From positions 27,325-91,324 of the forward strand of contig JACONG010000004.1 in the NCBI GenBank assembly GCA_014323865.1: a stretch of 64,000 bases of DNA, in the 5' to 3' direction. The DNA is from Rhodospirillales bacterium. GTDB lineage: Bacteria; Pseudomonadota; Alphaproteobacteria; SP197. The notes below the pieces were generated by a model that had not been told where the DNA came from, did not search any database, and saw only the letters and a list, made by a program, of their open reading frames with translations. Below, piece after piece: positions 1 through 59,327 of this stretch. The translations under genes and the position numbers were made by a program. The first letter of the stretch is position 1; each line of letters begins with the position of its first letter.

Positions 1-44
1 TCGCGGCTGAAGCGGCATGTTGCCACTATTGGCCGGCTTGCAGA

Positions 45-440
45 TTGTCAGGGCGCGTTCTGATAGGCTCGCTGAACAGCCGGGAGCAGGACGTGTTTTT
101 CGAGGGGAATCAACGGCTTAAGGCACAGGTGTGGATCGACGCCCAAGTCCGGCGCTGCAATCTGCAGGCGCTGCCGTTCTATGTCGTCCGACGTGGCGAT
201 CCGGACGCCGGCATGATCCTCATCAAGCTGATTCGAGGACCAGACAGGGTTCTCATCTTGTCACCGGCACGCGATGAGCAGGGCCGCCCGGCCTGGCAGA
301 GACCGCTGGGTGAGGGGGAAGTGCCTGATTCTGATGGCGAATCCTGGCTGAGCCGGCAGATCGACTACGATCCCGACCTCTGGATCGTCGAAATCGAGGA
401 TGTGGCGGCCGCCTGGTGGCCCGACGAGCCGATTCTCTGA
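45..440 (+). CDS. DUF1491-like conserved alphaproteobacterial protein (true start may be a GTG near 93)
   Basis: ORF 45..440. The pattern RLKAQVWIDAQVRRC...ALPFYVVRRGDPDAGMILIKL resembles DUF1491 family N-termini. Start codon is uncertain. Confidence 0.45.
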   Translation: MSGRVLIGSLNSREQDVFFEGNQRLKAQVWIDAQVRRCNLQALPFYVVRRGDPDAGMILIKLIRGPDRVLILSPARDEQGRPAWQRPLGEGEVPDSDGESWLSRQIDYDPDLWIVEIEDVAAAWWPDEPIL

Positions 441-443
441 ATA

Positions 444-800
444 TCAGTCCCGGTCGCATGGCCGAATCGTATCGATCCAGCCTGCGAGGTCGTGACCGCC
501 ATGGCCGAGCTCTTCGGCGCGGGCCATCAGCGCATCAAGGCTCTCAGGCGTCGACACGTCCGGCCCAGCTCTGGGCCATGACCTGCCTCGGGCCGCCGCG
601 CCGGGCTTCGAGTGTTGCGCCGACCTCGTCGTTGAAGGCTCGGCTTTCGATCGCGACATTCGCGCTACGGGTTGCCAGCGCGTCAGCCTTTCCGGGCTGC
701 GATCCCAGACGGTGACGGCGAAACCGGTGTCGAGCAGGCGGGCGGCGAGCGCACGGCCCATGTTGCCCAGGCTGATGACAGCGACGCGGGCGTCTGGCAT
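444..800 (-). pseudogene. Fragment of an NAD-binding 3-hydroxyisobutyrate/6-phosphogluconate dehydrogenase-family gene, frameshifted and truncated
   Basis: The N-terminus MPDARVAVISLGNMGRALAARLLDTGFAVTVWDRSPERL is a Rossmann GxGxxG dehydrogenase start. The reading then leaves frame; a -1 frame continues as DALATRSANVAIESRAFNDEVGATL... Only about 120 of an expected roughly 290 codons are present. Confidence 0.45.
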
Positions 801-812
801 CGGCCGGGCCCT

Positions 813-1667
813 TCAGCCCGGTGTCAGGTTGAAACCCGTCAACACCATCCCGTCGGGCGTGAACACCATGGTGGCACCAGGCTCGGCCGCCTCCAGGGTG
901 AAGTCGTCGCGTTCGAAGCGCAGGCCGCCCTGGCTGAACACCCAGGTCATGCCGCTGGTATCCGCCAGCGAGGCCCGGGCCGCACTTGTCTGGTCATGTG
1001 CCAGAAAGAGCGGTACGAAGAGCGTGCCCGGCACGTCGATCACCTTGCCGTCGAGCGGCACCGGCAGAATGTCGCCCGAGCGGACCTTGAAGAGCAGCGA
1101 GGTCGCCTCGTCGATCGTGATGGTGCGCGGTTCGACGAAGACTTGGGCGCGCCAGGGAATGCCGTCGGTCACCAGCAGGCTGCCGTCGCCGTTGTCGCTG
1201 AAGCCGAGCGGGCCATTGCCCGCGATCTCGGCGGGATCGCCCAGCAGCGCGGAGACCGGCGAGTCGGGATCGCTGTTCGTATCGGGCACCGCGATCGTGG
1301 CGTTGGTGTCGATATCGAGATCGTCCACTGCGGCTGCCTTGGGCTCGGCGACGTCGGGCTCCGGCGCGGCTTCCTCCGCCGTCCCGGTCGCGAGACCGAT
1401 GATCCAGGGCGAGACCGTGCCGGTCGGGGTGCGGCCCCGGTCGGTCTCGAAGGCTTCGATGGCGGCGCGCGAGCGGCTTCCCATAAGACCGTCGTCGGGC
1501 CCGGGTTCGTACCCCCGGGCCGCGAGATGACTCTGCACGGCGGCGATCTCGTCGGCGGTCTGGGCCAGCGCGGGCGCGCCGAGCACGAGGCCTGTGGCAA
1601 GGAGCAGGGCGGAGAGGAACGAACGTGTCACGGCGGTCACCGAGCGTAGGCTGTGGCGCACCGTCAT
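813..1667 (-). CDS. Secreted protein with a peptidoglycan-binding (PG_binding_1-like) domain
   Basis: Signal-peptide-like N-terminus (MTVRHSLRSVTAVTRSFLSALLLATGLVLGAPALAQT) followed by AAVQSHLAARGYEPGPDDGLMGSRSRAAIEAFE, a typical PG-binding repeat. The start was chosen at the internal Met of ORF 813..1835. Confidence 0.55.
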   Translation of the reverse strand: MTVRHSLRSVTAVTRSFLSALLLATGLVLGAPALAQTADEIAAVQSHLAARGYEPGPDDGLMGSRSRAAIEAFETDRGRTPTGTVSPWIIGLATGTAEEAAPEPDVAEPKAAAVDDLDIDTNATIAVPDTNSDPDSPVSALLGDPAEIAGNGPLGFSDNGDGSLLVTDGIPWRAQVFVEPRTITIDEATSLLFKVRSGDILPVPLDGKVIDVPGTLFVPLFLAHDQTSAARASLADTSGMTWVFSQGGLRFERDDFTLEAAEPGATMVFTPDGMVLTGFNLTPG

Positions 1668-1675
1668 GCCGGAGG

Positions 1676-1975
1676 TCAGGCGGAGGGTCCAGCCTCGGCC
1701 TGCCGTTGCCTCGCTTCCCAGAGGTCGTCGCGGGTCACCGGTATGGCGTCCCGCTCGCGTCCCACCTGCAGGTGAAGCACCGCGTTCGAGCCGTGGCGGA
1801 ACACTCCGGCGGCGGCGGCGAGATAGGGCTCCCACATGCGGCAGAAGCGTTCGTTCATCATCGCGGCGGCCTCGTCGCGATGTTCGGCGAAGCGCTCAGC
1901 CCAGTGCTGCAGGGTCAGCGCGTCGTGCAGGCGCAACACCTCGGCATCGAACATGGCGTCACTTGTCATGAACAA
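1676..1975 (-). pseudogene. C-terminal fragment of a cyclopropane-fatty-acyl-phospholipid synthase-like (Cfa/Mycolic-acid MTase family) gene
   Basis: The 99-aa ORF ends in ...FCRMWEPYLAAAAGVFRHG, matching the conserved C-terminal RMWEYYLAYCEAGF block of Cfa-family SAM methyltransferases. The N-terminal two-thirds is absent. The fragment abuts the low-GC islet. Confidence 0.5.
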
Positions 1976-2041
1976 TGGGCGCTTGTCTTCCTTGCAGAGT
2001 GGAGCTATAACGCTTCTGAGCTACATCAATCGAGGCTAAAA

Positions 2042-3148
2042 ATGGCGACTGAAGTGCGCGACGCTGTTCCTGAAAAGGAGAATGATGATCTTGACTTCAA
2101 AAAAGAAGAAGATGATGAGCTTCACGTCGAATATGACATAGCCAATTATCCATCCGACTACACACTCAGTGTCATTCATGAGATGTGGAAGAATGACGAT
2201 ATTGAAATACCTGAGTTTCAACGCAACTTTGTTTGGACAATTAAGCAGTCATCTCTACTAATCGAATCGTTCCTGAAGGGATTACCAGTCCCTCAGCTAT
2301 TCTTTTACATTGATGATCAGCATAAGAATCTCGTGATTGATGGTCAGCAGAGAGTAATGAGTATTGTCTATTTTCTGGAAGGGTATTTTGGTCCAGAGAA
2401 CCAGACGGGGAGAAGGCAGGTCTTCAGGCTAACAGGATTGGATGAAACAAGCCCTTATCATAGGAAAACGTTCGCTGATCTATCTGAATCTCTGCAGCGC
2501 AAGTTCAAATCTCGGGTTCTACGTGTCGTAAATATTCGTCAAATGAAACCGGAAGGTAAGAACACGAGTATGTTTCATATCTTCGAAAGACTAAACACTG
2601 GTGGCACTCCTCTTCGACCTCAGGAAATTCGTAACTGTGTTTTTTCTGGAGATATTGTTGATCGACTCAAGGAGCTCAATGAGGACAAGAATTGGAGAAA
2701 TGTTATCGGAAAGGCCAACATAGATAAACATCAACGAGATGTTGAGATGGTGTTGCGTGTTTTGGCGCTTGCTGATGGTCACATGAACTATCAAAAGCCA
2801 ATGAAAGAGTTTTTGAACAAGTATATGGATTCTAACAGAAATGGCACGAGTAAAGAGTTTCGGAAACTCCACAAAGATTTCTTGTGTGTTACAGAAATTC
2901 TTGATGAGCATGGCGGTAAACGTGTTTTCCATGTTCACGGCCCAATTAACCGAGCTGCCATGGACTGCATATTTGCTTCGATGTTAATTCATTTGGACAG
3001 AAGAGAGGATTGGAGTAAGCTGTCAAGTCAGATTGAACAGCTATACAAAAATGAAGAATTTCGATCTTGTATTTTCTCTAATACAAGTGACCCAAATATA
3101 GTAAAAAAACGAATGGAAATTGCCTTGGAGTGCATCGGGGCTGAATAA
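2042..3148 (+). CDS. DUF262 (ParB-like, GmrSD N-terminal-type) domain protein
   Basis: The ATG at 2042 sits at the onset of an AT-rich stretch, with GAGG upstream. Motifs FQRNFVW...LIESFLKGLPVPQLFFY...LVIDGQQRV: DGQQR is the hallmark of DUF262. No DUF1524/HNH half is present in this protein. Confidence 0.75.
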   Translation: MATEVRDAVPEKENDDLDFKKEEDDELHVEYDIANYPSDYTLSVIHEMWKNDDIEIPEFQRNFVWTIKQSSLLIESFLKGLPVPQLFFYIDDQHKNLVIDGQQRVMSIVYFLEGYFGPENQTGRRQVFRLTGLDETSPYHRKTFADLSESLQRKFKSRVLRVVNIRQMKPEGKNTSMFHIFERLNTGGTPLRPQEIRNCVFSGDIVDRLKELNEDKNWRNVIGKANIDKHQRDVEMVLRVLALADGHMNYQKPMKEFLNKYMDSNRNGTSKEFRKLHKDFLCVTEILDEHGGKRVFHVHGPINRAAMDCIFASMLIHLDRREDWSKLSSQIEQLYKNEEFRSCIFSNTSDPNIVKKRMEIALECIGAE

Positions 3149-3154
3149 TGTCAT

Positions 3155-3652
3155 ATGAGGAAAAAATTTAGGCTTGCTGATGACTCTCTCCTTCATCTTT
3201 ATGGTCTAATAGATTTGATCGATGATGAGCTTATCAAGCGAAACTACTTGGGGTTCATCTCTGTCTCGGCAGTGACTGCTTGCGAGTTGGCAATAAAGGA
3301 GATCTTTTACGAGTTCGGGGACGATGAGAGCGAATTACTAGGAACGGTCACTCGAAACATATTCCATAAGATAAATGGTCGAATTGCGCCCAATCATTTA
3401 TATAATCATATTTCATGCTTCGGTAAAAAATATGTGGACATATTCAAAGAGAGGCTTCGCTCAACAAATGAGAAGACGCTTCAAGAGTCAGGTGTTAATA
3501 TAATAGAAAGCTATAAATCATTGGTTGACTGCCGAAATCGTTTCGTACATGAAGGTGAAATACTTGACACTATTACCTACGATGAACTAAAGAGATCTTA
3601 TGATTCAGGAAAATCGGTTGTTCACTGCCTTTCGGATTCAATGGTGCGATAG
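3155..3652 (+). CDS. HEPN-like protein (Rx4H motif) partnered with the DUF262 gene
   Basis: 165-aa ORF starting 7 nt after the DUF262 stop, with similar low GC. The C-terminal CRNRFVHEGE fits the HEPN R-x4-6-H motif. The protein is predicted all-alpha. This resembles HEPN families reported next to DUF262 genes. Confidence 0.5.
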   Translation: MRKKFRLADDSLLHLYGLIDLIDDELIKRNYLGFISVSAVTACELAIKEIFYEFGDDESELLGTVTRNIFHKINGRIAPNHLYNHISCFGKKYVDIFKERLRSTNEKTLQESGVNIIESYKSLVDCRNRFVHEGEILDTITYDELKRSYDSGKSVVHCLSDSMVR

Positions 3653-3660
3653 CATTCTGA

Positions 3661-4914
3661 TCAATGGCTCGCCGCCGTCGCCGCCTTGTCGTCGAGCAGG
3701 CGGAAGGAGTTGAAGCGTTCCAGGGAGAAAGCCTTGATCAGGTCGGGCGTCTCGTCCCTGGCGATCAGTTCGGCGTTGGTTTTGCCGCAGACCGGGGTGG
3801 CCTTGAAGCCCCAGGTGCCCCAGCCGGCGTCGAGGTAGTAGTTGCGGACCTCGGACTTGCCCATGATCGGTGAGTAGTCGGGCGTCATGTCGGTCATGCC
3901 GGCCCATTGACGCAGGATCTTGGTTTCGGCGAGGAACGGGAAGAGTTCCAGGGTGCCGACCATCCAGGCTTCCTTCATCTCCAGCGTCGAGCGGGTGTTG
4001 TAGAGCGTGTAGGGATCGCTGCCCCCGCCGATCACCACCTCGCCGCGCGCAGTCTGACTCAAATAGACGTGGTGCTGGGTGCTCGAGATCAGCGGATCAA
4101 GGAAGGGTTTCACGGGCAGGCTGACGCCGGCCTGCAGCGGGAAGGTCTTGATCGGCAGCTTGATGCCGGCCAAACGCGCGATCTCGCCCGACATGCCGGC
4201 GACGCACTGGATCACCTGGCCCGCCTTGATCGTGCCGCGGTTGGTGTGGACCTCGCTGACCTTGCGGCTGCCGTTGTTGCCTGCGAAGCCGAAGCCGGTG
4301 ACCTCGGTCTTCTGGTGGATCTCGACGCCGCGCTGCCAGGCGCCTGAGCCGTAACCCCAGGCGACCGCGTCATGGCGCGCGATCGAGCCCGGGTGATGGA
4401 CCAGCGCGCCCTGGATCGGGAAGCGGGTGTTCTCAGAAAGACCGAGGAAGGGCACCAGCTTGCGCAGTGCCTCCCGGTCGACCAGGTCCGAGGCGATGCC
4501 GAAGTGGCGGCTGACCTCGTTGCGCCAGCGCATCGACCGCACCTGGGCGTCGGTGTGGGCGAGCGTGATCTGGGCGCGTTCGGAGAGCATCAGGTTGAGA
4601 TCGAAGTCGTGCGCCAGGTCGCGGTAGAGCTGGACCGAGGTATCGTAGAAGCGCACGCCGTCGGGCGTCAGGTAGTTCGAGCGGATCACCATGGTGTTCC
4701 GCCCGGTGTTGCCCGAGCCGATGTAGTTCTTCTCCAGCACCGCGACATTCGTGATGTCCCAGTCCTTGGCGAGGTAGTAGGCGGTGGCGAGCCCGTGGCC
4801 GCCACCGCCGACAATGACGACATCGTAAGAGGGCTTGAGCTCGGCCGGTGTCGGCAGGGCGCGGGGCGGGGTGCCGTCCTTGCGGAGGCCCAGCCGAAGC
4901 AGAGAGAACACCAT
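3661..4914 (-). CDS. soxB: Sarcosine oxidase beta subunit (heterotetrameric SoxB, FAD-dependent)
   Basis: 417 aa. N-terminal YDVVIVGGGGHGLATAYYLAK (FAD GxGxxG), internal HHPGSIARHDAVAWGY and overall length are typical of SoxB. No soxD/A/G follows. Confidence 0.8.
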   Translation of the reverse strand: MVFSLLRLGLRKDGTPPRALPTPAELKPSYDVVIVGGGGHGLATAYYLAKDWDITNVAVLEKNYIGSGNTGRNTMVIRSNYLTPDGVRFYDTSVQLYRDLAHDFDLNLMLSERAQITLAHTDAQVRSMRWRNEVSRHFGIASDLVDREALRKLVPFLGLSENTRFPIQGALVHHPGSIARHDAVAWGYGSGAWQRGVEIHQKTEVTGFGFAGNNGSRKVSEVHTNRGTIKAGQVIQCVAGMSGEIARLAGIKLPIKTFPLQAGVSLPVKPFLDPLISSTQHHVYLSQTARGEVVIGGGSDPYTLYNTRSTLEMKEAWMVGTLELFPFLAETKILRQWAGMTDMTPDYSPIMGKSEVRNYYLDAGWGTWGFKATPVCGKTNAELIARDETPDLIKAFSLERFNSFRLLDDKAATAASH

Positions 4915-5045
4915 GCGGTCAAACGTCCGTCACAGGAGAAGATTGAGATAACGCCATCGTGGGCGGTTGGCAATCGGCCCTGATCCCACATCACGTCGGT
5001 GCGGGAACGGTTGCGGTGATTGCCACCGCTGTTACGCTCATTGTG

Positions 5046-8000
5046 ATGACGTCTGGGGAGGCGGTCTTGGCACGACACGATCAGCAACAGGTAGACGAAC
5101 GCATCGACGAGGTGCTGGTCCTGATCGGCGAACGCTTCGCCGGTGACGCCAGCAAGGTGCAGTGTTTTGCCCGCAGCTACTTTGCCGATGTCATCGCCGA
5201 GGACATCGAGGGCGAATCGACCGAGAACCTCTACGGTGCCGTCGCCTCGCTCTGGCAGTTCATGCGCCAGCGCAAGGAAGGAGGACCGAAGGTCCGCGTC
5301 TACAACCCCAATCTCGAGCAGGACGGCTGGCAATCGACCCATACGGCGATCGAGATCGTCAACGACGACATGCCGTTCCTCGTCGATTCCGTGGTCGCCG
5401 CGCTCAACCGCATGGACATCTCCGTCCTGCTCCTGATCCACCCCATCATCAACCTCAACCGCGACGACGCGGGCACCATCGCCACGATCTACAAGCGCGG
5501 TGCGGGCGGCGAGGGCATGACTGCCGAATCGGTGTTGCATGTCGAGATCACGCAACAGCCCGAGGACCCGCGCCACGACGAGATCAAAGCGCGGCTCCAC
5601 GAGGTACTGGGCAATGTGCGGGCCTCGGTCGAGGACTGGCCCGGGATGATTGCCAAGCTCGACGAGCAGATCGCCGCGCTGAAAGACAACCCGCCGCCGA
5701 TTGATGCCGAGGACCTGGCCGAGTGTCTCGATTTCCTGCAGTGGCTCCGGGACAACCACTTCACCTTCCTGGGCCACCGCGAGTACCGCTTCGAACGGCG
5801 TGACGAGAAGGTCTTCGCCCAGATCGTCGACGATGGGAACATGGGCATCCTGCGCGCTGTGACCGATGAGAGCCGGGCGCGCCACGCTGATGCCCTGCCC
5901 GATCACTTCGCTGAGTACATCGACCGCAAGGAGCTCTTCATCATCTCCAAGGCATGGACCCGGTCCGACGTCCACCGCCCGGTCTACATGGACTACATCG
6001 GCGTCCGCCTGTTCGACGACGACGGTACGGTGATCGGCGAGCGCCGCTTCCTGGGACTCCTGACCTCGACCGCCTACAGCGCGGTGCCGTCCCACATCCC
6101 GCTGCTGCGCCGCAAGTTCAAGACGGTGGTCGAGCGCGCCGGCTTCTCGCCCGGCAGCCACAACGACAAGGCGCTCGAGCACATCCTCGACACTTTACCG
6201 CGCGACGAGCTGTTCCAGATGGATACCGACACGCTGGAGCGTATTGCGCACGGCATTCTTCACATGGAGCATCGCCAGCGCATCCGGCTGTTCATGCGTT
6301 CGGACAACTACGGCGAGTTCGTCTCCTGCCTCGTCTTCGTGCCGCGCGATCGCTACACGACCGACCTGCGCGACCGCATCAAGCAGATCCTGATGGAGGA
6401 GCTCGGCGGCGACTCGGTCGACGTCAACACGCAGCTCTCCGACGCGCCCATGGCGCGGGCCCACTACATCGTCCACACGCCGGGTGGTCAGCGCCGGGAC
6501 CGCCGCGTGCGCGACCTGGAGCAGCGCCTGGTCGTGGCCTCGCGCAGCTGGAACGATGACTTCCACGATGCGTTGATGGAAGAATTCGGCGAGGGCCAGG
6601 GCAGCACGCTGTTCCACCGCTTCGCCCATGCGATCCCGGCGAACTACAGGGACCACTTGAGCCCACGGCTGGCGGTCGCCGATGTCGAGCGCATGGAGCG
6701 CACGGTCACCGACGGCATCGCCATGAACCTCTACCGTCGGGTTGATGCCGACGACCACTCGCTGAACTTCAAGGTCTACCATGCCGGAAACCCCGTGCCG
6801 CTGTCGATCATCATGCCGATGCTGGAACACATGGGCCTCGTGGTGATTGAGGAGACGCCCTACGAGGTTGCGCTCAAGGACGAGACGGCGGTCTGGATTC
6901 ACGACTTCCACTGCCACCAGGAGTATGACTGGGAGGTCGATGTCCCGGCGGTACGCAAGCGGTTCCACGACACCTTCCGCCAAGTCTGGGCGGGCGAGAT
7001 CGAGAACGACGATTTCAATGATCTCGTGCTCGCCGGCCTCGACTGGCGCCAGGTCGTGGTGCTGCGCGCCTATGCCAAGTACATGAACCAGGCCAATGTG
7101 CCGTTCAGCCAGAGCTACATCAAGCGCACCTTGGCCGCGAACCCGACCATCGCCAAGCTGCTGATCGATCTCTTCATCGTGCGTTTCGATCCGGACAACC
7201 AGGACGGCATGGCCGAGCGCTCGGATGCGATCCGTGCCGAGATCACCGAGGCGCTCAACCAGGTCGTCTCGCTCGATGAGGATCGCATCCTGCGCCGCTA
7301 TCTCAACCTGATCGAGGCGACGCTCCGCACCAACTTCTTCCAGCTCCGCGAGGACGGCAGGCCCAAGGCCTATGTCTCCTTCAAGTTCGACAGCCAGGCG
7401 ATCGAGGAGCTGCCCGATCCCCGGCCGTGGCGCGAGATCTTCGTCTATTCGTCGCGGGTCGAGGCCGTGCACTTGCGCGGCGGTCCGGTCGCGCGCGGCG
7501 GCATCCGCTGGTCTGACCGGCTGGAGGACTTCCGCACCGAGGTGCTCGGTCTCGTGAAGGCTCAGATGGTCAAGAATGCGGTGATCGTGCCGGTCGGCTC
7601 CAAGGGCGGATTCGTGGTCAAGAAGCCGCCCTTGGAAGGCGGGCGCGAAGCGTTCCAGGCCGAAGGCATCGACTGTTACAAGACCTTCATGTCGGGCATG
7701 CTCGACATCACCGACAACATCGTCGGCGGTGAGATCGTCCAGCGCGAGCGGGTCGTGCGCCACGACGGCGATGATCCCTATCTCGTCGTCGCTGCCGACA
7801 AGGGCACGGCGACCTTCTCGGATATCGCCAACGGCATCGCACGCGACTACGGCCACTGGCTCGATGATGCCTTCGCCTCCGGCGGTTCGGCCGGCTACGA
7901 CCACAAGGCCATGGGCATTACCGCCAAGGGCGCATGGGAAGCGGTCAAGCGTCACTTCCGCGAGATGGGCAAGGACATCCAGAACGAGGACTTCACCGTC

Positions 8001-9887
8001 GTCGGTGTCGGTGACATGGGCGGCGACGTCTTCGGCAACGGCATGCTGCTCTCCGAGCACATCCGGCTGCTCGGAGCCTTCAACCATCTTCACATCTTCT
8101 GTGATCCCGATCCCGATGCTGCGGCGAGTTATGTCGAACGAGCGCGCCTGTTCGAACTGCCGCGCTCGACCTGGATCGACTACAATGCCGATCTCATCAG
8201 CGAGGGTGGCGCGATCTACGAACGCAGCGCCAAGTCGCTAGAGCTCACGCCCCAGATCAAGAAATGCTTCGGCATCAAGGCCGATCACGTCACGCCCAAT
8301 GAGCTGATCAACGCCATGCTCAAGACCGACGTCGAGCTCCTGTGGAACGGCGGCATTGGCACCTACATCAAGGCGTCCGACGAGACCCATGCCGAGGTCG
8401 GCGACCGGGCCAACGACAGCCTGCGCGTCGACGGCAGGCAAGTCGGCGCCAAGGTCTTTGGCGAGGGCGGCAATCTGGGCGCGACCCAGGCCGGCCGGAT
8501 CGAGTTCGCGCTGGCCGGCGGGCGCATCAACACCGACGCGATCGACAATTCCGCGGGCGTCGACTGCTCGGACCACGAGGTCAACATCAAGATCCTGCTG
8601 GGCGATGTGGTCGAGGCCGGCGACATGACGGTCAAGCAGCGCGACCGCCTGCTCGAGGAGATGACCGACGAGGTCAGCGATCTCGTGCTGCGCGACAATT
8701 ATCTGCAGACCCAGGCGCTGACGATCCTGGAGAACAACGCCGACATTCGCGGTGACGAGCAGATCCGCTTCATGCGTGCGGTCGAACAGTCGGGCCTGCT
8801 CGACCGTCGTATCGAGGGCCTGCCCGACGACGAGGAGCTGGCCGACTGGCGCACCCGGGGCCGCCGCTTCACCCGGCCCGAACTTTCGGTGCTGCTGGCC
8901 TACGCCAAGATGGATCTCTATCCGGCGCTGCTCGAGTCCGACCTGCCGGACGATCCTGATCTGCAGGCCGATCTCGTGCGCTACTTCCCGGTCCCGCTGC
9001 AGGAGGGTTTCCGCGACCGGATCATGAACCACCGCCTGCGGCGCGAGATCGCGGCGACTCTCACGACGAACTCCATCGTCAACCGGGCGGGCATCAGCTT
9101 CATCCGCCGCCTGGCCGAGGAGTCCGGTTACGACTTCGCCGATATTGCCCGCTCCTACACGGTGGCTCGCGACGCCTTCGCCCTGCGCGACGTCTGGCTC
9201 GCGATCGAGGCGCTCGACAACCAGGTGCCGACCACCGTGCAGACCGCGATGCTCGAAGAGACCATACTGCTGATCGAGCGCGTGACCGGCTGGATGCTGC
9301 GCCACCGCAGTCAGCCCATGGCGATCGGCGATACCGTCAGCGCCTTCCGGCCTGCCGTCATGGTGTTGCAGGACAGGCTGCCCGAGCTGGTCAGCACGTC
9401 GCGTCGACAATCCATGCAGCGCGCCGCCAAGCGCTACGAGAAGGAAGGCGTGCCCGCCGACATTGCGGCCCAGGTTGCCAGCCTGCGTACGCTGGCCGCG
9501 GTCTGCGACGTGATCGCTACCGCCGAGACGCTCTCGATCGGCGTCATCGACGTCGCCACTGTCTTCTTCGACGTCGGCGAGGAGCTCGGCACCGACTGGC
9601 TGCGCGACATGCTGGTCCGACTCGCCATCGAGGACCGCTGGGACCGCCTGGCCCAGCAGGCCCTGATCGAAGAGAGTTTCCAGCAGCAGCGTTCCATCGC
9701 CGCGGCCGTCCTCCAGGCCAACCGCGAAGGACCGGCCGACAAGGCCACCGCCGCCTGGATCTCAACCAACAAGGCGCGTGTCACGCGCGCTCGCAATGTC
9801 ATCACCGACCTGCAGAGCACCAATACCCCGGTCGACCTCGCCATGGCCTCGGTCGCCAGCCGCGCGCTGCGCGGCCTGGCGGGGTAA
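5046..9887 (+). CDS. gdhB: NAD-specific glutamate dehydrogenase, large (about 1600 aa) GdhB type
   Basis: ORF 4959..9887. It contains RGGIRWSDRLEDFRTEVLGLVKAQMVKNAVIVPVGSKGGFVVKKPP and the downstream catalytic region typical of Bac_GDH large NAD-GDHs. The start is uncertain (Met at 4959, 5046 or later). Confidence 0.85.
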   Translation: MTSGEAVLARHDQQQVDERIDEVLVLIGERFAGDASKVQCFARSYFADVIAEDIEGESTENLYGAVASLWQFMRQRKEGGPKVRVYNPNLEQDGWQSTHTAIEIVNDDMPFLVDSVVAALNRMDISVLLLIHPIINLNRDDAGTIATIYKRGAGGEGMTAESVLHVEITQQPEDPRHDEIKARLHEVLGNVRASVEDWPGMIAKLDEQIAALKDNPPPIDAEDLAECLDFLQWLRDNHFTFLGHREYRFERRDEKVFAQIVDDGNMGILRAVTDESRARHADALPDHFAEYIDRKELFIISKAWTRSDVHRPVYMDYIGVRLFDDDGTVIGERRFLGLLTSTAYSAVPSHIPLLRRKFKTVVERAGFSPGSHNDKALEHILDTLPRDELFQMDTDTLERIAHGILHMEHRQRIRLFMRSDNYGEFVSCLVFVPRDRYTTDLRDRIKQILMEELGGDSVDVNTQLSDAPMARAHYIVHTPGGQRRDRRVRDLEQRLVVASRSWNDDFHDALMEEFGEGQGSTLFHRFAHAIPANYRDHLSPRLAVADVERMERTVTDGIAMNLYRRVDADDHSLNFKVYHAGNPVPLSIIMPMLEHMGLVVIEETPYEVALKDETAVWIHDFHCHQEYDWEVDVPAVRKRFHDTFRQVWAGEIENDDFNDLVLAGLDWRQVVVLRAYAKYMNQANVPFSQSYIKRTLAANPTIAKLLIDLFIVRFDPDNQDGMAERSDAIRAEITEALNQVVSLDEDRILRRYLNLIEATLRTNFFQLREDGRPKAYVSFKFDSQAIEELPDPRPWREIFVYSSRVEAVHLRGGPVARGGIRWSDRLEDFRTEVLGLVKAQMVKNAVIVPVGSKGGFVVKKPPLEGGREAFQAEGIDCYKTFMSGMLDITDNIVGGEIVQRERVVRHDGDDPYLVVAADKGTATFSDIANGIARDYGHWLDDAFASGGSAGYDHKAMGITAKGAWEAVKRHFREMGKDIQNEDFTVVGVGDMGGDVFGNGMLLSEHIRLLGAFNHLHIFCDPDPDAAASYVERARLFELPRSTWIDYNADLISEGGAIYERSAKSLELTPQIKKCFGIKADHVTPNELINAMLKTDVELLWNGGIGTYIKASDETHAEVGDRANDSLRVDGRQVGAKVFGEGGNLGATQAGRIEFALAGGRINTDAIDNSAGVDCSDHEVNIKILLGDVVEAGDMTVKQRDRLLEEMTDEVSDLVLRDNYLQTQALTILENNADIRGDEQIRFMRAVEQSGLLDRRIEGLPDDEELADWRTRGRRFTRPELSVLLAYAKMDLYPALLESDLPDDPDLQADLVRYFPVPLQEGFRDRIMNHRLRREIAATLTTNSIVNRAGISFIRRLAEESGYDFADIARSYTVARDAFALRDVWLAIEALDNQVPTTVQTAMLEETILLIERVTGWMLRHRSQPMAIGDTVSAFRPAVMVLQDRLPELVSTSRRQSMQRAAKRYEKEGVPADIAAQVASLRTLAAVCDVIATAETLSIGVIDVATVFFDVGEELGTDWLRDMLVRLAIEDRWDRLAQQALIEESFQQQRSIAAAVLQANREGPADKATAAWISTNKARVTRARNVITDLQSTNTPVDLAMASVASRALRGLAG

Positions 9888-9900
9888 CGCTTTCGGCTCG

Positions 9901-10451
9901 TCAGAGGGGCTTCAGGTCGATCGGGCCGTCGTGCTCGGCGCAGGTGTGGGTCGCGGACGTGCCGCCCAGGTGCATGAGCAGCACCTTCGCGCCCGTCGCC
10001 GAGGCCTGGGCCTTGACCGTCTCGCAGAGCGTTTCGCCCAACTTGGCGACGTCACCTTCGAGAGGCTTGACAGCGATGCTGACCGCCAGGGCTTTGAGAT
10101 CCATGGTGTCGGAATCCTCGCCGGTTGTTTTGGCAATGGCCTTCATGAAGAGGGCCGGATTGTTCATCAGTGCGGCGCCGACGATGCGTTTGACTTGGCG
10201 CGTGGCCTTGTCGAGTCGATGACGGGATCGGCACTGAGCTCACGCGACGCGGCGATCACCGCCTCAGGGTTCGCGTTGGTCCAGGCCTCCCGACCATCGT
10301 GTGGTCTGGTCTGCACGGTGCCGGCCGGCATGAGCAGGATCTCGCTCGGGACGTTGCCGGCCTCGAGCTCGGTCGCGGCGACGGCCAGGCCCATGTGGTC
10401 GGGCACGGTCCTTGCAAACGCGAGCTGCAGGTCGATCGTTCGTTCGGTCAT
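9901..10451 (-). pseudogene. Two short ORFs (94 aa and 88 aa, TGATG overlap) resembling fragments of Mu-like prophage protein I (protease/scaffold)
   Basis: ORFs 10167..10451 and 9901..10167 on the minus strand total about 180 aa, against about 350 aa for Mu gpI. The motif PAG-x-RPHDGR...AVIAAS is present. Assignment is by pattern only. Confidence 0.35.
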
Positions 10452-10560
10452 CGCGGTCCGGTTCTGTCGCCGGCATTGCGCCGGCCGTCGAGATGGCTGA
10501 CCCTATGACCCGATTACAACCGATGTGACCCGGACAGGTGTCCGGGGGATGAGAGCGAAG

Positions 10561-11238
10561 ATGGCCTACGTCAGGCCGGCGCACAGAGCCGACGCCTTCA
10601 ACTGTCCCTACTGCGGTACTTATGCCGTGATGCACTGGCGCTACCACATTGGGACGGCCCGGGAGGATGGTTGTGAACAAGCTAAGGTGTTTTGGCTCCC
10701 GATCGAGGAGCCTGACTTCGACAATCTCCAGGATCTAGAGACCTCGACCTGCAATCGGTGCAAAGGAATCGCTGTCTGGCACAACGGCGAGATGGTCGAG
10801 CCGCTCGGCGTCTCTGCACCGCCCGCCCATAGGTCGTTGCCGGCTGATTGCCGGGATGACTATGCCGAGGCCCGAGCGATCCTTGAGCGATCGCCGAAGG
10901 GTGCCGCCGCGATGCTTCGTCTGGTGGTGCAGAAGCTCTGTGTGCATCTCGGCGAAGAAGGCAAGAACATCAATCACGACATCGGCGAGCTGGTGAAGAA
11001 GGGTCTGCCCGAAGAGATCCAGATGGCGCTCGATACGGTGCGGGTGGTCGGGAACGATTCCGTCCATCCCGGCCAGATCGATGTACGCGACACGCCGGAG
11101 GTGTGCGCCCGGCTTTTCGAGCTCGTGAACTTCATCGTGCAGCGCATGATACACGAGCCGGCCGAGATCGCGCGGATCTACGGCGCGCTGCCGCCCGACA
11201 AGCGCGCCGGCATCAAGGGCCGAGACGGCAAATCCTGA
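10561..11238 (+). CDS. DUF4145 domain protein (HEPN-like C-terminal domain with N-terminal Cys-rich/zinc-ribbon-like region)
   Basis: ORF 10525..11238 with a start at MAYVRP. CPYCGTY...CNRCKG cysteine pairs, then ...AAAMLRLVVQKLCVHLGEE...ALDTVRVVGNDSVHPGQ, typical of DUF4145. It is on the opposite strand to the prophage fragments and slightly lower in GC. Confidence 0.65.
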   Translation: MAYVRPAHRADAFNCPYCGTYAVMHWRYHIGTAREDGCEQAKVFWLPIEEPDFDNLQDLETSTCNRCKGIAVWHNGEMVEPLGVSAPPAHRSLPADCRDDYAEARAILERSPKGAAAMLRLVVQKLCVHLGEEGKNINHDIGELVKKGLPEEIQMALDTVRVVGNDSVHPGQIDVRDTPEVCARLFELVNFIVQRMIHEPAEIARIYGALPPDKRAGIKGRDGKS

Positions 11239-11386
11239 CCCCCGTCAAAATTGCCCCTAGAGGGCGATGAATACCTCCCCCGGCACCCATACAGCCCGCC
11301 CCTCCGAATCGTTTAAACCCCGTTTAACGCGCAATCCTGGGCGTGTTTGGGTACGCTCCGGTTGCTCCGCGGGCGGTCCGATGCCC

Positions 11387-11959
11387 TCATCTCACGCCGA
11401 GGGGCCGGTGTCCCCCTGTCAAGGACGTGAGGAGCAGGCCCGGCGGTCCGGCGTCGGGCCTTTCTTGCGAACGGCGCCAGGCCAGCGTGCCACGCCGGCG
11501 CTTCTCCAGCTCCCGGGACTTGTCCACCTCGAAGGCCGTCACGCCGCGCCAGCCGTCCGGCGCGACATCCATGACAACCGTGAGGCGGGCGTCCTGGCCG
11601 GGAACGGTCCAGTGCGCGACGTGGTGACGCCGAAGCGTCATCTCGCCGCTGCGTTCCTCCCAGACCCACCATATCTCGTCGGGCTGGCGGATCGTGTCGG
11701 CGATGACACGGATGAACTTCTGGCGTCCGCGCTTGTCGACCTTGTAGGGCCCGCCCGGGAAGAGGCGGAAGAAGGCGTCGGTGATCACGACCGGCTCGCC
11801 GATGACGTCCGTGAAGACGACGGGCTTTCCGGGCGCGGCACCGAACTCTTCCAGGAAGGCACCGACGTACTCGGCGTCGGACAGTCCCGAGGCGGGCATG
11901 ATCCGCGAGGCCGGCACCGGCGGCGGGCCCGATATCGGCGGCGGAGTCAGACCGTCCAT
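11387..11959 (-). pseudogene. MuF-like (phage head morphogenesis) N-terminal fragment
   Basis: 190-aa ORF. It is preceded, in the same frame, by RRIPKGIDPGFAYNVG, which continues from the portal-like frame after a frameshift. It is truncated at 11387. Confidence 0.35.
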
Positions 11960-12419
11960 GTGACGAAGACCGACGTTGTAGGCGAAGCCGGGATCGATGC
12001 CCTTCGGGATGCGCCGGACCTGGCCGGTGCGCCGGTTCTTCCATGCCCATCAACTCGCGGACCTGGCCTTGGCTCACCTTGAAGCCGATCGGAACCAGCT
12101 TCGCCAGAGAGTCGGAGACGCGGACGATGTCGATCGACTCCGCCCGGCTTATACGGATCTTCGGGTAGGCCTTCTGCGGACCACGGTTGAGGTCGATGAT
12201 CGGCCGGACCAGGTCGCGGTTGAGCGTGGCGCAGAGCTGCTTGCAGTCACTGCGCTCGATGTTGGCGCGGACGTCGTTGTGTACGTCGCCCAGAGCACGG
12301 GAGCCGGAGTCACCGACGTCGGTCGTCAGCGTTTGCCCCAGGACAGCCTTCGAGATCAGGCTGTCGATGTAGCCGATGAGCTTCTCGTAGATATCGGCAT
12401 TGGCGCCCGCGCGCCGAAC

Positions 12420-57316: not shown

Positions 57317-57400
57317 CCCTCCTTGTCGTTTCGTGTTGTACTAGGGCTCTGGATAGTCTATATGAGGCGACACTAGAAACGGCAACTTAGGAGTATACCG

Positions 57401-57810
57401 ATGCCAGCACTTCACGATTATCGGCTGTTCATAAGCCATGCTTGGACATATGGCGGAGCATATGACCGCATGATTTCCTTTCTTGATAATGCTAACAACT
57501 TCAAGTACAGCAACTACTCGGTACCCGTCAATAAGGCGTTCGAAGGAATGTCAAAACTCAGCTAGAGGAGCAGCTCAGACGTCAAATCAGGCCGGTTGAA
57601 GTCGTGATAATATTATCTGGCATGTATGTTTCTTACAGTGACTGGATTCAGTTTGAAATCGACTTTGCTGAATATCTCGGCAAACCGATCCTGGGCGTGC
57701 GGCCATGGAGTTCGTCAAGGATCCCCTCAGCGGTAACCCGTGCTGCGGATGAGATTGTGCGCTGGAACACCAGTTCTATCGTTGATGCTATAAGGAGGCT
57801 GGCGCGATGA
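57401..57810 (+). CDS. TIR-like (DUF1863/ThsB-type) domain protein, interrupted by a -1 frame change at an A4 tract (57553-57556)
   Basis: AGGAG lies 8 nt upstream of ATG 57401. Frame A gives MPALHDYRLFISHAWTYGGAYDRMISFLDNANNFKYSNYSVPVNKAFEGMSK..., then a stop. Frame B continues ...TQLEEQLRRQIRPVEVVIILSGMYVSYSDWIQFEIDFAEYLGKPILGVRPW.... Joined, this gives a roughly 135-aa TIR-like fold pattern (FISH...D, hydrophobic core strand VVIILS, S.W..E). The islet has about 43% GC. Confidence 0.55.
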
Positions 57811-58685
57811 CAAAGATCACATATCCAGCCATTTATGAAGCTGCCGATAAAGGGTCGAAGTCGGCACAATCTTGGTACTTAACTCTGGTAAGATTTGAGT
57901 ATTTGTTTCTGATTATCTTGGCCATACTTTCAATGGAGCTGTTTAACTCCGAATTGTATTATTTCGGCTTTGTTATGGTCCTGCTTACATCATTGGCAAT
58001 TTTGTTCTGGATGTGGTTTCGAAAGCCCGAACAAGCATGGTACCGCTGCCGAGCTCTTGCCGAATCAATAAAGACCATAAGCTGGCGATACATGATGCGG
58101 TCAGAGCCATTCGAGGATGCTCAGAGCGTTAGCGTGCCACGATCTGAACTGCGGAATATACTCAAAGGCTTGCTGTACAATAACGAGAACCTCGGAGAAC
58201 ATATTATTCAGCGAGACGATCAGCTCGATCAAGTTACCCATGAAATGGACACTGTACGAGAGTCTGAACTCGAAAGACGCAAGCACATATACTTGGAAGA
58301 GAGAATTAAAGAACAGCGCCTTTGGTATACAAAGAAAGCTTCCAGTAACAAAAAGTCATACAAATGCTGGATGTGTTTTTGTGTGTTGATTTACGTCGCT
58401 GCTTTCTTCCTAATCATCTTGCGCGCTATGTACTGGGATGAAAGCTGGCAAATCTGGCCGTTGGAGCCTCTTATTGTAATCGCATCTGCGATTGTCGGAT
58501 GGATTCAGATCAAGAAGTTCAACGAACTGACCGCAGCCTATACTTTGACTGCACACGAAATTGGATTCCTCCAAGCTGGAATAAGCGAAATTAACAATGA
58601 GAAAGAACTGTCAGATTTTGTGAATGAGGCTGAGCTCGCGTTCTCGAGAGAACATACCCAGTGGAAGGCCCGACAATCTAGCTAG
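57807..58685 (+). CDS. Membrane protein with two tandem SLATT (DUF4231-like, 2TM each) domains
   Basis: 292 aa. ATGA overlap with the TIR-like gene. TM pairs at about residues 28-70 and 205-250, each followed by an amphipathic W..YR..AE.IK....Y-type helix characteristic of SLATT domains. AT-rich codon usage. Confidence 0.55.
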   Translation: MTKITYPAIYEAADKGSKSAQSWYLTLVRFEYLFLIILAILSMELFNSELYYFGFVMVLLTSLAILFWMWFRKPEQAWYRCRALAESIKTISWRYMMRSEPFEDAQSVSVPRSELRNILKGLLYNNENLGEHIIQRDDQLDQVTHEMDTVRESELERRKHIYLEERIKEQRLWYTKKASSNKKSYKCWMCFCVLIYVAAFFLIILRAMYWDESWQIWPLEPLIVIASAIVGWIQIKKFNELTAAYTLTAHEIGFLQAGISEINNEKELSDFVNEAELAFSREHTQWKARQSS

Positions 58686-58697
58686 CGTTGCCGGGCG

Positions 58698-59327
58698 CTA
58701 CTGAACCTCGTCGATCCTGTCGACGATATGAGCGACGATGCCGTAGTCCCTGGCTTCCTCCGGACCCATCCAGTAGTTGCGGTCCGTGTCCTTCGCGACG
58801 CGTTCGATCGGCTGGCCGGTCTCTTCGGCAATGATGCGGTTGAGCCGGTCGCGCATCTTGAGGATTTCCCTGGCCTCGATGTCGATCTCGGTCGCCTTGC
58901 CGCCGATGCCGCCCATCGGCTGGTGCAGCAGAAAGCGCGTGTTGGGCGTGCAGTAGCGGTTGTCCTTCTCGGCCGAGAGATAGATGTGGGCGCCGGCGCT
59001 GGCGACCCATCCCGTGCCGATCGCCTTCACCGGGGCCGAAACGAAGCGGATCGTGTCGTGGATCGCATCACCCGATTCCACGTGGCCGCCGGGCGAGCTG
59101 ATCATCAGCCTGATCGGCTTGTCGCTTTCCTCGCTCATGGCGATCAGCTGGCCGCAGGTCTCGCGTGCGGCCTTCTCGTCGATCTCCCCGAACAACAGGA
59201 TCATGCGCGATTCGAAGAGGATCCTGGCCGCCGGACGGCTCCGGGGCTCCTTCTTCCCGGCCTTTTCGTCCTTGCCGTCGTCATCGTCGTCGTCGTCGGC
59301 AGCGTGGGGCAGGTCGAAATCGATCAT
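58698..59327 (-). CDS. clpP: ATP-dependent Clp protease proteolytic subunit (ClpP paralog) with an Asp-rich N-terminal extension
   Basis: ...RILFESRMILLFGEID...ISSPGGHVESGDAIHDTIRFV...GWVASAGAHIYLSAEK...LHQPMGG is canonical ClpP (Ser-His-Asp). N-terminal MIDFDLPHAADDDDDDDGKDEK. No clpX is adjacent. Confidence 0.75.
   Translation of the reverse strand: MIDFDLPHAADDDDDDDGKDEKAGKKEPRSRPAARILFESRMILLFGEIDEKAARETCGQLIAMSEESDKPIRLMISSPGGHVESGDAIHDTIRFVSAPVKAIGTGWVASAGAHIYLSAEKDNRYCTPNTRFLLHQPMGGIGGKATEIDIEAREILKMRDRLNRIIAEETGQPIERVAKDTDRNYWMGPEEARDYGIVAHIVDRIDEVQ

Follow-up and report, generated by a model that had tools for sequence, protein, structure and literature searches.

A low-GC DUF262-HEPN gene pair in a Rhodospirillales genome as a probable PD-T4-2-type defence module

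The subject of this analysis was a low-GC islet at positions 1976 to 3660 of a 64,000-nucleotide (nt) stretch of DNA (the window; contig JACONG010000004.1, positions 27,325 to 91,324 of the forward strand, assembly GCA_014323865.1) from a Rhodospirillales bacterium. The islet was found to be occupied by two intact, closely spaced open reading frames (ORFs) on the + strand, with the pair spanning 1611 bp. The first, gene A, encodes a DUF262 protein, and the second, gene B, encodes a HEPN protein. It was concluded that the islet is very probably a defence module of the PD-T4-2 type. The fuller interpretation, in which the two genes form a self-contained anti-phage module of this type that arrived by horizontal transfer, was considered probable.

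According to the literature, the Escherichia coli prototype, PD-T4-2, protects against phage T4. PD-T4-2 was obtained from E. coli ECOR65 by functional selection against T4 (Vassallo et al. 2022, Nat Microbiol; PMC9519451), where it is listed as "DUF262, HEPN" in Table S1 and as two ORFs over 1540 bp in Table S2. The two ORFs are those of RCO39066.1 and of an unannotated product (QOYX01000002: 338334-339873). The HHpred assignments in Table S3 of the same paper are PF03235 for the A protein (99.7%) and PF18735 for the B protein (97.8%, residues 23-162), and deletion of the system from native ECOR65 strongly increased plaquing by T4. The association of the two families had been recorded still earlier, as "Ribo L-PSP-HEPN ... 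operon with ParB" in Table 1 of Anantharaman, Makarova, Burroughs, Koonin and Aravind (2013, Biol Direct; PMC3710099). A first-pass annotation of the window, made from the sequence letters, had described a DUF262 protein without DUF1524 together with a separate HEPN protein carrying an Rx4H motif, and this description was borne out by the PF03235 and PF18735 matches. Its further statement, that the architecture had no characterised match, did not hold, as the pair was already in PMC3710099 (2013) and had been described as PD-T4-2 in PMC9519451 (2022). The architecture is already known, and defence against T4 is experimentally established for the E. coli prototype.

The islet and its two proteins

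The GC content of positions 1976-3660 was 0.405, compared to a mean of 0.643 (standard deviation, 0.035; minimum, 0.487) for segments of the same length elsewhere in the 64 kb (z = -6.8). The drop near 1976 and the recovery near 3660 reported in the first-pass annotation were thereby confirmed. Both switches were sharp, falling at approximately 1940-2000 on the left and 3630-3690 on the right. The features of the islet on which the assignment depends are as follows.

1976-3660, + strand: low-GC islet with the whole two-gene module (from GC content)
2042-3148, + strand: gene A, 368-amino-acid (aa) ParB-like DUF262 (GmrSD_N) putative NTPase with a C-terminal helical domain and without DUF1524/HNH (Pfam PF03235)
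2216-2236, + strand: DUF262 motif I, FQRNFVW (QRxxxW), with F, Q, R, V and W invariant in a 26-sequence alignment
2339-2353, + strand: DUF262 motif II, DGQQR, the predicted NTP-binding and hydrolysis centre, invariant in the same alignment
2582-2596, + strand: DUF262 motif III, FERLN (FxxxN), likewise invariant
3155-3652, + strand: gene B, 165-aa HEPN protein of the RiboL-PSP family, putative RNase effector (Pfam PF18735)
3533-3550, + strand: HEPN motif R127-N-R-F-V-H132 (Rx4H), within CRNRFVHEG (R127 codon, 3533-3535; H132 codon, 3548-3550)
3284-3286 and 3374-3376, + strand: codons of E44 and N74, further invariant residues of gene B (74-protein alignment)

The product of gene A is the 368-aa "DUF262 domain-containing protein" (P0008) annotated by NCBI for the Rhodospirillales metagenome-assembled genome (MAG). 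The frame and the motifs given for this ORF in the first-pass annotation stood, whereas its length of 369 aa did not, since one upstream Lys codon had been counted; the start is the ATG at 2042 and not position 2039. The gap between the two genes, put at 7 nt, is actually 6 nt (3149-3154). PF03235 (GmrSD_N/DUF262) was the only Pfam match of gene A (6.4e-29). The protein also matched two PADLOC profiles over almost their whole length, namely, NsnA (3.6e-67, 225 bits, profile positions 25-378 of 385) and PD-T4-2_A (PDLC04027; 5.4e-53, 178 bits, positions 17-360 of 363), as well as a PHROG family of unknown function (5e-76). The three DUF262 motifs (motif I as defined in PMC12065111) were included among 93 columns that were invariant in 26 A proteins, and the A protein of the window retained all 93. 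The retention of every invariant column answers the concern, raised in the first-pass annotation, that the DUF262 gene might carry inactivating lesions. No match to DUF1524 was found in gene A or in any neighbouring ORF.

The AlphaFold2 model of the A protein (predicted local distance difference test [pLDDT], 80) consisted of an N-terminal alpha/beta domain and a C-terminal helical domain. In a Foldseek search with this model, the best match was BrxU (4.9e-5), followed by SspE and the ParB/Noc CTPases. The DUF262 part is of the ParB/sulfiredoxin fold; the helical domain is BrxU/SspE-like, and in the relatives BrxU, SspE and NsnA its counterpart binds DNA. A profile search of the PDB with gene A returned no solved member of the family, the one match being to BrxU over residues 31-88 (58 residues). 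The closest homologue of this protein was 59% identical.

The product of gene B is identical to "hypothetical protein GDA49_00800". It was matched by PF18735 (HEPN_RiboL-PSP) at 1.8e-15, with 57.8 bits against a gathering score of 28.4, and its nearest homologue was 46% identical. No notable PADLOC, NCBIfam or PHROG match was observed for this protein, and its profile returned nothing from the PDB at E <= 0.1. Among 74 aligned partner proteins (that of the window, 71 from the homologous loci described below and 2 from E. coli), all of which matched PF18735, the invariant columns were E44, N74, R127 and H132 only. The AlphaFold2 model (pLDDT, 90.1; predicted template modelling score, 0.86) was all-alpha with seven helices, and R127 and H132 were located at the end of helix 116-133. 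The best match among the viral folds of BFVD was a MAE_28990-like HEPN protein (probability, 1.0; template modelling score, 0.61; E value, 0.014). With regard to the proposal that the 165-aa protein has a HEPN fold, the model is confidently all-alpha and its nearest folds are HEPN, none of them being a statistically significant match.

An alternative is that the module targets DNA. The ParB-like DUF262 protein would then itself nick or cut (modified) DNA, in line with older annotations as a "ParB-like nuclease", and the HEPN protein would be a noncatalytic adaptor or an RNA-binding regulator. ParB-like domains were treated as DNases of the restriction-modification (R-M) type by Anantharaman et al. 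(PMC3710099), and DNA is what BrxU and SspE, the nearest relatives of known structure, act on. In BrxU, GmrSD and SspE, however, the cut is made by a DUF1524 HNH domain that gene A lacks, while their DUF262 domain is the NTPase or sensor. The invariance of R127 and H132 in the 74 proteins also argues for HEPN catalysis rather than a passive adaptor. DNA targeting by the A protein was therefore deemed very improbable.

The pair in other genomes

The first-pass annotation had proposed co-occurrence of the two genes as a check on whether they form a system. A pattern scan covering one genome per species gave 482 confirmed relatives of gene A, and the best 80 loci were retained. Their lineages, taken from the record titles, included Alpha-, Beta- and Gammaproteobacteria, Deltaproteobacteria, Desulfobacterales, Campylobacterales, Acidobacteriota, Verrucomicrobiota and Nitrospirales, together with Bacteroidota, Ignavibacteria, Chloroflexota, cyanobacteria, Bifidobacteriaceae, Omnitrophota, Zixiibacteriota and Latescibacterota. 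With a hidden Markov model (HMM) of B homologues, a B gene was detected directly 3' of A in 74 of the 77 loci having downstream DNA, 71 of them complete and 3 truncated by the contig end, so the co-occurrence was confirmed. The three exceptions were one disrupted A gene (L032) and two A genes fused in frame to glnS (L057 and L076).

The two genes were also found to be tightly coupled. Of 72 pairs, 70 had A and B separated by -11 to +19 nt. The matrices of pairwise identity for A and for B were strongly correlated over 72 pairs (r = 0.79), a value reached by none of 2,000 Mantel permutations, with A being the slower-evolving partner (mean identity, 57%, versus 46% for B). Clustering of the flanking ORFs within 5 kb at 71 loci revealed no third recurrent gene. 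The commonest flanking family, a generic ABC-type ATPase, was present at 9 of these loci in varying positions and on both sides, and a family resembling a type I R-M methylase subunit (identified by reading the sequences by eye) was near the pair at 4. The GC content of the pair was a median of 12.7 points under that of its flanks, and at 60 of 70 loci the deficit exceeded 5 points. From the co-occurrence, the co-evolution, the lack of a third gene and the low GC content, it was deduced that the pair is a self-contained, often-transferred two-gene unit. Judged by its sequence, the copy in the window is a typical intact instance, though a divergent one.

A search with the A protein gave more than 7,000 clusters (90% identity) at E <= 1e-20, although such a search can also reach DUF262 proteins outside the pair; the B protein gave 277 clusters at 50% identity. 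The HEPN partner of this clade is approximately 168 aa long and typically starts with MAYxDHFRLADD. The PADLOC profile PD-T4-2_B (PDLC04028, PADLOC-DB v2.0.0) detected only 1 of the 74 RiboL-PSP HEPN partners, and that one weakly (2e-4). Since this profile misses nearly all of the partners, finders that need both subunits would overlook most such modules.

Two blastn searches of complete E. coli genomes revealed at least two further DUF262 + HEPN variants, which are carried by plasmids and by a prophage, respectively. The plasmid variant (L081:2980-5494 and L082) comprised a DUF262 protein (365 aa) and a HEPN protein (180 aa) on conjugative plasmids of approximately 40 to 50 kb from E. coli and Salmonella. 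It began within the 3' end of the replication initiator gene, with an 8-nt overlap. Among the 12 E. coli plasmids carrying it, its sequence identity was 99.9 to 100% in 11 and 95 to 99% in the remaining one. The second variant (L083:4840-6556), with a DUF262 protein of 387 aa and a HEPN protein of 182 aa, was found in a lambdoid prophage of E. coli O83:H1 NRG 857C. This pair adjoins a major capsid gene that is annotated as partial (N terminus missing). Downstream, the head genes are present a second time as a complete set, and the pair has the appearance of a defence cassette that entered the structural genes of the prophage. In RefSeq, the variants are named "GmrSD/DUF262 domain-containing protein" and "HEPN domain-containing protein". 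Both share the two-gene architecture of the islet, with gaps of 0 to 4 nt, and the identity of their A proteins to that of the window is 45%. They differ in that their HEPN proteins (180 to 182 aa) are only approximately 20 to 23% identical to the B protein of the window and in being carried by recognisable mobile elements. The PD-T4-2_A profile scored 142 and 132 bits on these two variants compared to 178 bits for the A protein of the window.

The existence of the plasmid variant bears on a second interpretation of the pair, namely, a toxin-antitoxin or addiction module. By analogy with HEPN-MNT, the HEPN protein would act as a toxin with constitutive RNase activity, held in check or modified by the DUF262 NTPase as antitoxin, and the main role would be to stabilise the mobile DNA carrying the pair rather than to defend against phage. 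That variant adjoins the replication initiator gene of the enterobacterial conjugative plasmids, and the operon is small, tightly coupled and strongly co-evolving. HEPN toxins that are neutralised by a partner are known, with HepT/MntA being the top fold matches here. Against these points, the prototype protects against T4 from its native chromosome, and the majority of the 80 homologous loci were chromosomal islets with no plasmid or phage genes nearby. Furthermore, the gene encoded first is the larger, conserved DNA-binding NTPase, which would be unusual for an antitoxin. An addiction role was considered distinctly unlikely as the explanation of the islet, although toxin-antitoxin and defence roles are mutually compatible.

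The loci at which the HEPN gene was missing were also inspected. At L057:4147-7017 (Methylotenera sp. MAG) and L076:14-2428 (Thiohalobacterales MAG), from two unrelated genomes, glutaminyl-tRNA synthetase (GlnRS) runs without a stop into a full-length member of the DUF262 family (HMM E values of approximately 1e-166 and 1e-170, respectively). No HEPN gene follows either fusion, and the next gene was identified by eye as cysK-like at L057 and msrA-like at L076. These may be real GlnRS-DUF262 fusions, in which case they would hint at a link between the sensor family and tRNA. At L032:5887-7394 (betaproteobacterial MAG), DUF262 homology is lost near the C terminus, and an overlapping HNH-endonuclease-like ORF is present where the HEPN gene would be; this may be a decayed or remodelled copy.

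Islet borders and flanking genes

The possible expression signals and the genes bordering the islet are listed below, with the evidence for each in parentheses.

1983-1988 and 2006-2011, + strand: candidate promoter, TTGTCT and TATAAC with a 17-nt spacer (read by eye, inference only)
2032-2035, + strand: GAGG Shine-Dalgarno sequence, 6 nt 5' of the ATG at 2042 (read from the sequence)
1676-1975, - strand: C-terminal remnant of a cyclopropane-fatty-acid synthase gene (cfa), approximately 90 codons (Pfam CMAS, positions 212-272 of 273; NCBIfam NF053839, positions 319-403 of 410)
3661-4914, - strand: intact gene for a flavoprotein of the sarcosine-oxidase-beta family, convergent with gene B (TIGR01373; Pfam DAO)
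444-800, - strand: remnant of an NAD-binding dehydrogenase gene, 118-codon ORF (N-terminal approximately 45 residues of the Rossmann domain only)

The left border of the islet cuts the cfa gene, and the missing 5' three-quarters of that gene would occupy the position of the islet. The first-pass annotation of this fragment as a cfa C terminus was corroborated by its matching only the last approximately 90 positions of the models. The right border is the oxidase gene, whose stop codon is 8 nt from that of gene B. This neighbour had been called soxB; the family assignment to the sarcosine oxidase beta group was correct, but the name was not supported, as the match to TIGR01373 (8e-140) scored 466 bits, below the cut-off of 529 bits. 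A second gene remnant, truncated or frameshifted, was present within approximately 1.2 kb of the islet at 444-800, between a DUF1491 gene and a PG_binding_1 gene. It is of the 6-phosphogluconate/3-hydroxyisobutyrate-dehydrogenase type, and its reported status as a dehydrogenase remnant was substantiated by matches to only the first approximately 45 residues of NAD-binding domains.

Searches for the hallmarks of a mobile element gave little. For direct or inverted repeats in 1500-4200, only short matches of chance size were obtained; no tRNA gene was found in 1-12000 around the islet; and no integrase or transposase was seen on inspection of the ORFs of the islet region. A terminator scan at the islet found none. 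The candidate promoter, within the 66 nt that precede gene A, went unreported in a consensus scan because of the terminal C of its -10 element.

A metagenome scan with the oxidase gave a sole close relative, contig L084, on which the oxidase is 81% and the glutamate dehydrogenase 75% identical and the same divergent arrangement is present. The C terminus of the oxidase is identical in the window and in L084. Beyond it, two cold-shock genes follow in L084, which has neither cfa nor the islet there. Since L084 has other genes past the oxidase, the synteny stops exactly at the oxidase stop codon, and the state before insertion is not reconstructable from it. A corresponding metagenome scan with the 340-aa PG-binding neighbour protein gave no relatives. 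The interpretation of the region as an insertion/deletion hotspot, based on two gene remnants and one related contig, appears reasonable, and the comparison with L084 fits a variable spot.

The condition of the flanking genes also raises the question of whether the islet is a nonfunctional relic or an artefact of MAG assembly, either stranded foreign DNA or a chimeric join. The adjoining cfa gene is truncated, as is the dehydrogenase gene approximately 1.2 kb away, neither the promoter scan nor the terminator scan gave a passing site, and the nearest homologues are just 59% (A) and 46% (B) identical. The islet itself, by contrast, has two full-length ORFs that keep all of the invariant residues of their families in canonical order and spacing. 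Both of its junctions are internal to a 253-kb contig, and similar low-GC islets were found in 60 of 70 other genomes. An origin as relic or artefact was accordingly regarded as extremely unlikely.

A second low-GC islet was noted elsewhere in the window, at 57400-58700 (GC content of approximately 0.51 to 0.53 versus 0.64). The ORF at 57807-58685 (+ strand, 292 aa) within it has the two-transmembrane effector domains SLATT_3 (4.6e-36) and SLATT_1 (2.5e-33). Its neighbours are a NUDIX hydrolase gene on one side and clpP on the other, and no SMODS/SLOG partner was seen nearby. Possibly, this is a further orphan gene of a conflict system.

Proposed mechanism and comparison with known systems

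NTPs are bound and hydrolysed by the DGQQR motif of GmrSD, BrxU, SspE and HEC-06, and defence by these systems depends on it, while HEPN domains are dimeric, metal-independent RNases dependent on the Arg and His of their motif. By analogy, a mechanism can be proposed in which a sensor gates an RNase, and the chances that A and B operate in this way were judged to be about even. Protein A would recognise some feature of the invader's nucleic acid, perhaps a modification of phage DNA as for GmrSD, BrxU and SspE, and would bind and hydrolyse an NTP at the DGQQR centre. The resulting conformational change in A would free or activate a HEPN dimer of protein B, which would then cut RNA (tRNA or mRNA) and stop translation. 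The expected outcome would be growth arrest or abortive infection, such that the phage could not replicate. To our knowledge, a switch from a ParB-fold NTPase to an RNase has been demonstrated in no system. It was also considered, as an unlikely variant, that this clade could differ from the T4-selected prototype by responding to a cue other than hypermodified cytosine and by acting through an NTP-gated, tRNA-directed HEPN RNase. The GlnRS-DUF262 fusions without HEPN (L057 and L076) would fit a tRNA link of the clade.

For the annotation of this genome, an appropriate label for the locus would be "PD-T4-2-like defence module", with the insertion placed at the 3' end of a sarcosine-oxidase-family gene and most of cfa recorded as lost. 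More generally, few two-gene immune modules are as compact and as widely transferred as the DUF262 + RiboL-PSP-HEPN pair. The clade is very widespread (for example, in MAGs of Omnitrophota, Chloroflexota and Bifidobacteriaceae) yet essentially unannotated, being missed by the curated models of the B subunit, and tools relying on PADLOC PD-T4-2_B will undercount such systems. The family presents a clean target for determining how a ParB-fold NTPase controls a HEPN RNase, with experimental handles in the invariant residues E44, N74, R127 and H132, in the co-evolution of A and B and in the lack of a third gene.

Several observations weigh against assignment of the islet to the PD-T4-2 type. The PADLOC PD-T4-2_B profile (PDLC04028) does not match gene B at E <= 0.1, and for gene A the Menshen NsnA model outscores PD-T4-2_A. 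The PDB neighbours of the gene B model in Foldseek were HepT of HepT/MntA and AF_0298, with the best E value, 0.47, being statistically nonsignificant. Membership was deduced from Pfam-level family and architecture rather than from direct alignment with the ECOR65 proteins, because the prototype sequences were not obtained. The consensus promoter scan of the 5' end of the islet passed no site, and the source is a MAG in which the module is known from sequence alone. As for the type itself, a 2025 review of DUF262 proteins notes PD-T4-2 as lacking DUF1524 and "largely uncharacterized" (PMC12065111), and a literature search on PD-T4-2 and DUF262 + HEPN pairs found no mechanistic study.

The higher score of gene A on NsnA required that Menshen (NsnABC; Millman et al. 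2022) be considered. Gene A is NsnA-like in having a DUF262 domain followed by a C-terminal helical "ParBDB" domain, and the logic proposed for Menshen is likewise a DUF262 sensor with effectors that are mostly RNases (PMC12065111). The effectors are shuffled in that system, whereas A and B form a fixed, co-evolving pair. Menshen was rejected since NsnB and NsnC are absent here and from all homologous loci. No ABC ATPase of the NsnB type (AAA_15 + DUF3696) adjoins the pair in the window or lies directly downstream in the 71 loci, and an effector of the NsnC type, with an N-terminal inactive PIN domain, is likewise absent, gene B encoding a single-domain 165-aa HEPN protein.

Type IV restriction systems of the GmrSD/BrxU/SspE kind share the N-terminal DUF262 domain with DGQQR, and BrxU and SspE were the top structural matches of gene A. 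Those proteins are approximately 560 to 770 aa long compared to 368 aa here, and the presumed effector of the islet is a separate RNase rather than a fused DNase; this class was rejected as no DUF1524 His-Me/HNH domain is present. The HEPN-MNT system (HepT/MntA) has a small stand-alone HEPN RNase with Rx4H and provided the top PDB fold neighbours of gene B. Its partner, however, is a nucleotidyltransferase that AMPylates the toxin, and the family of the B protein (PF18735) is a different one; HEPN-MNT was rejected because there is no MNT-like ORF and the partner is DUF262. The PD-lambda-5 or MAE_28990-type combination of ParB-HEPN with a methyltransferase was also set aside, as no methyltransferase gene was found in or beside the islet. 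DARNA, which is PD-T7-3, is a different, single-protein HEPN system whose description cites PD-T4-2.

The operons of ParB with RiboL-PSP-HEPN (PMC3710099) show the same association as the islet, with the Rx4-6H motif kept, but they were recorded computationally, with no phenotype attached. Founding members of the RiboL-PSP-HEPN family carry a fused endoribonuclease L-PSP domain, which the B protein of the window lacks.

The closest correspondence was to PD-T4-2 itself. The gene order is the same, with a PF03235 protein of approximately 360 aa without DUF1524 followed by a PF18735 HEPN protein of approximately 165 aa, and the sizes are similar (1540 bp versus 1611 bp here). Furthermore, gene A matches the PD-T4-2_A profile over its full length. 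The differences are that the B protein of the window falls outside the PADLOC PD-T4-2_B profile, which implies a divergent clade, and that the host here is represented by a GC-rich alphaproteobacterial MAG, protection against T4 being recorded for the prototype only. On the basis of family and architecture, the islet is classified as a PD-T4-2-type module of a divergent clade and not as an orthologue of the prototype.

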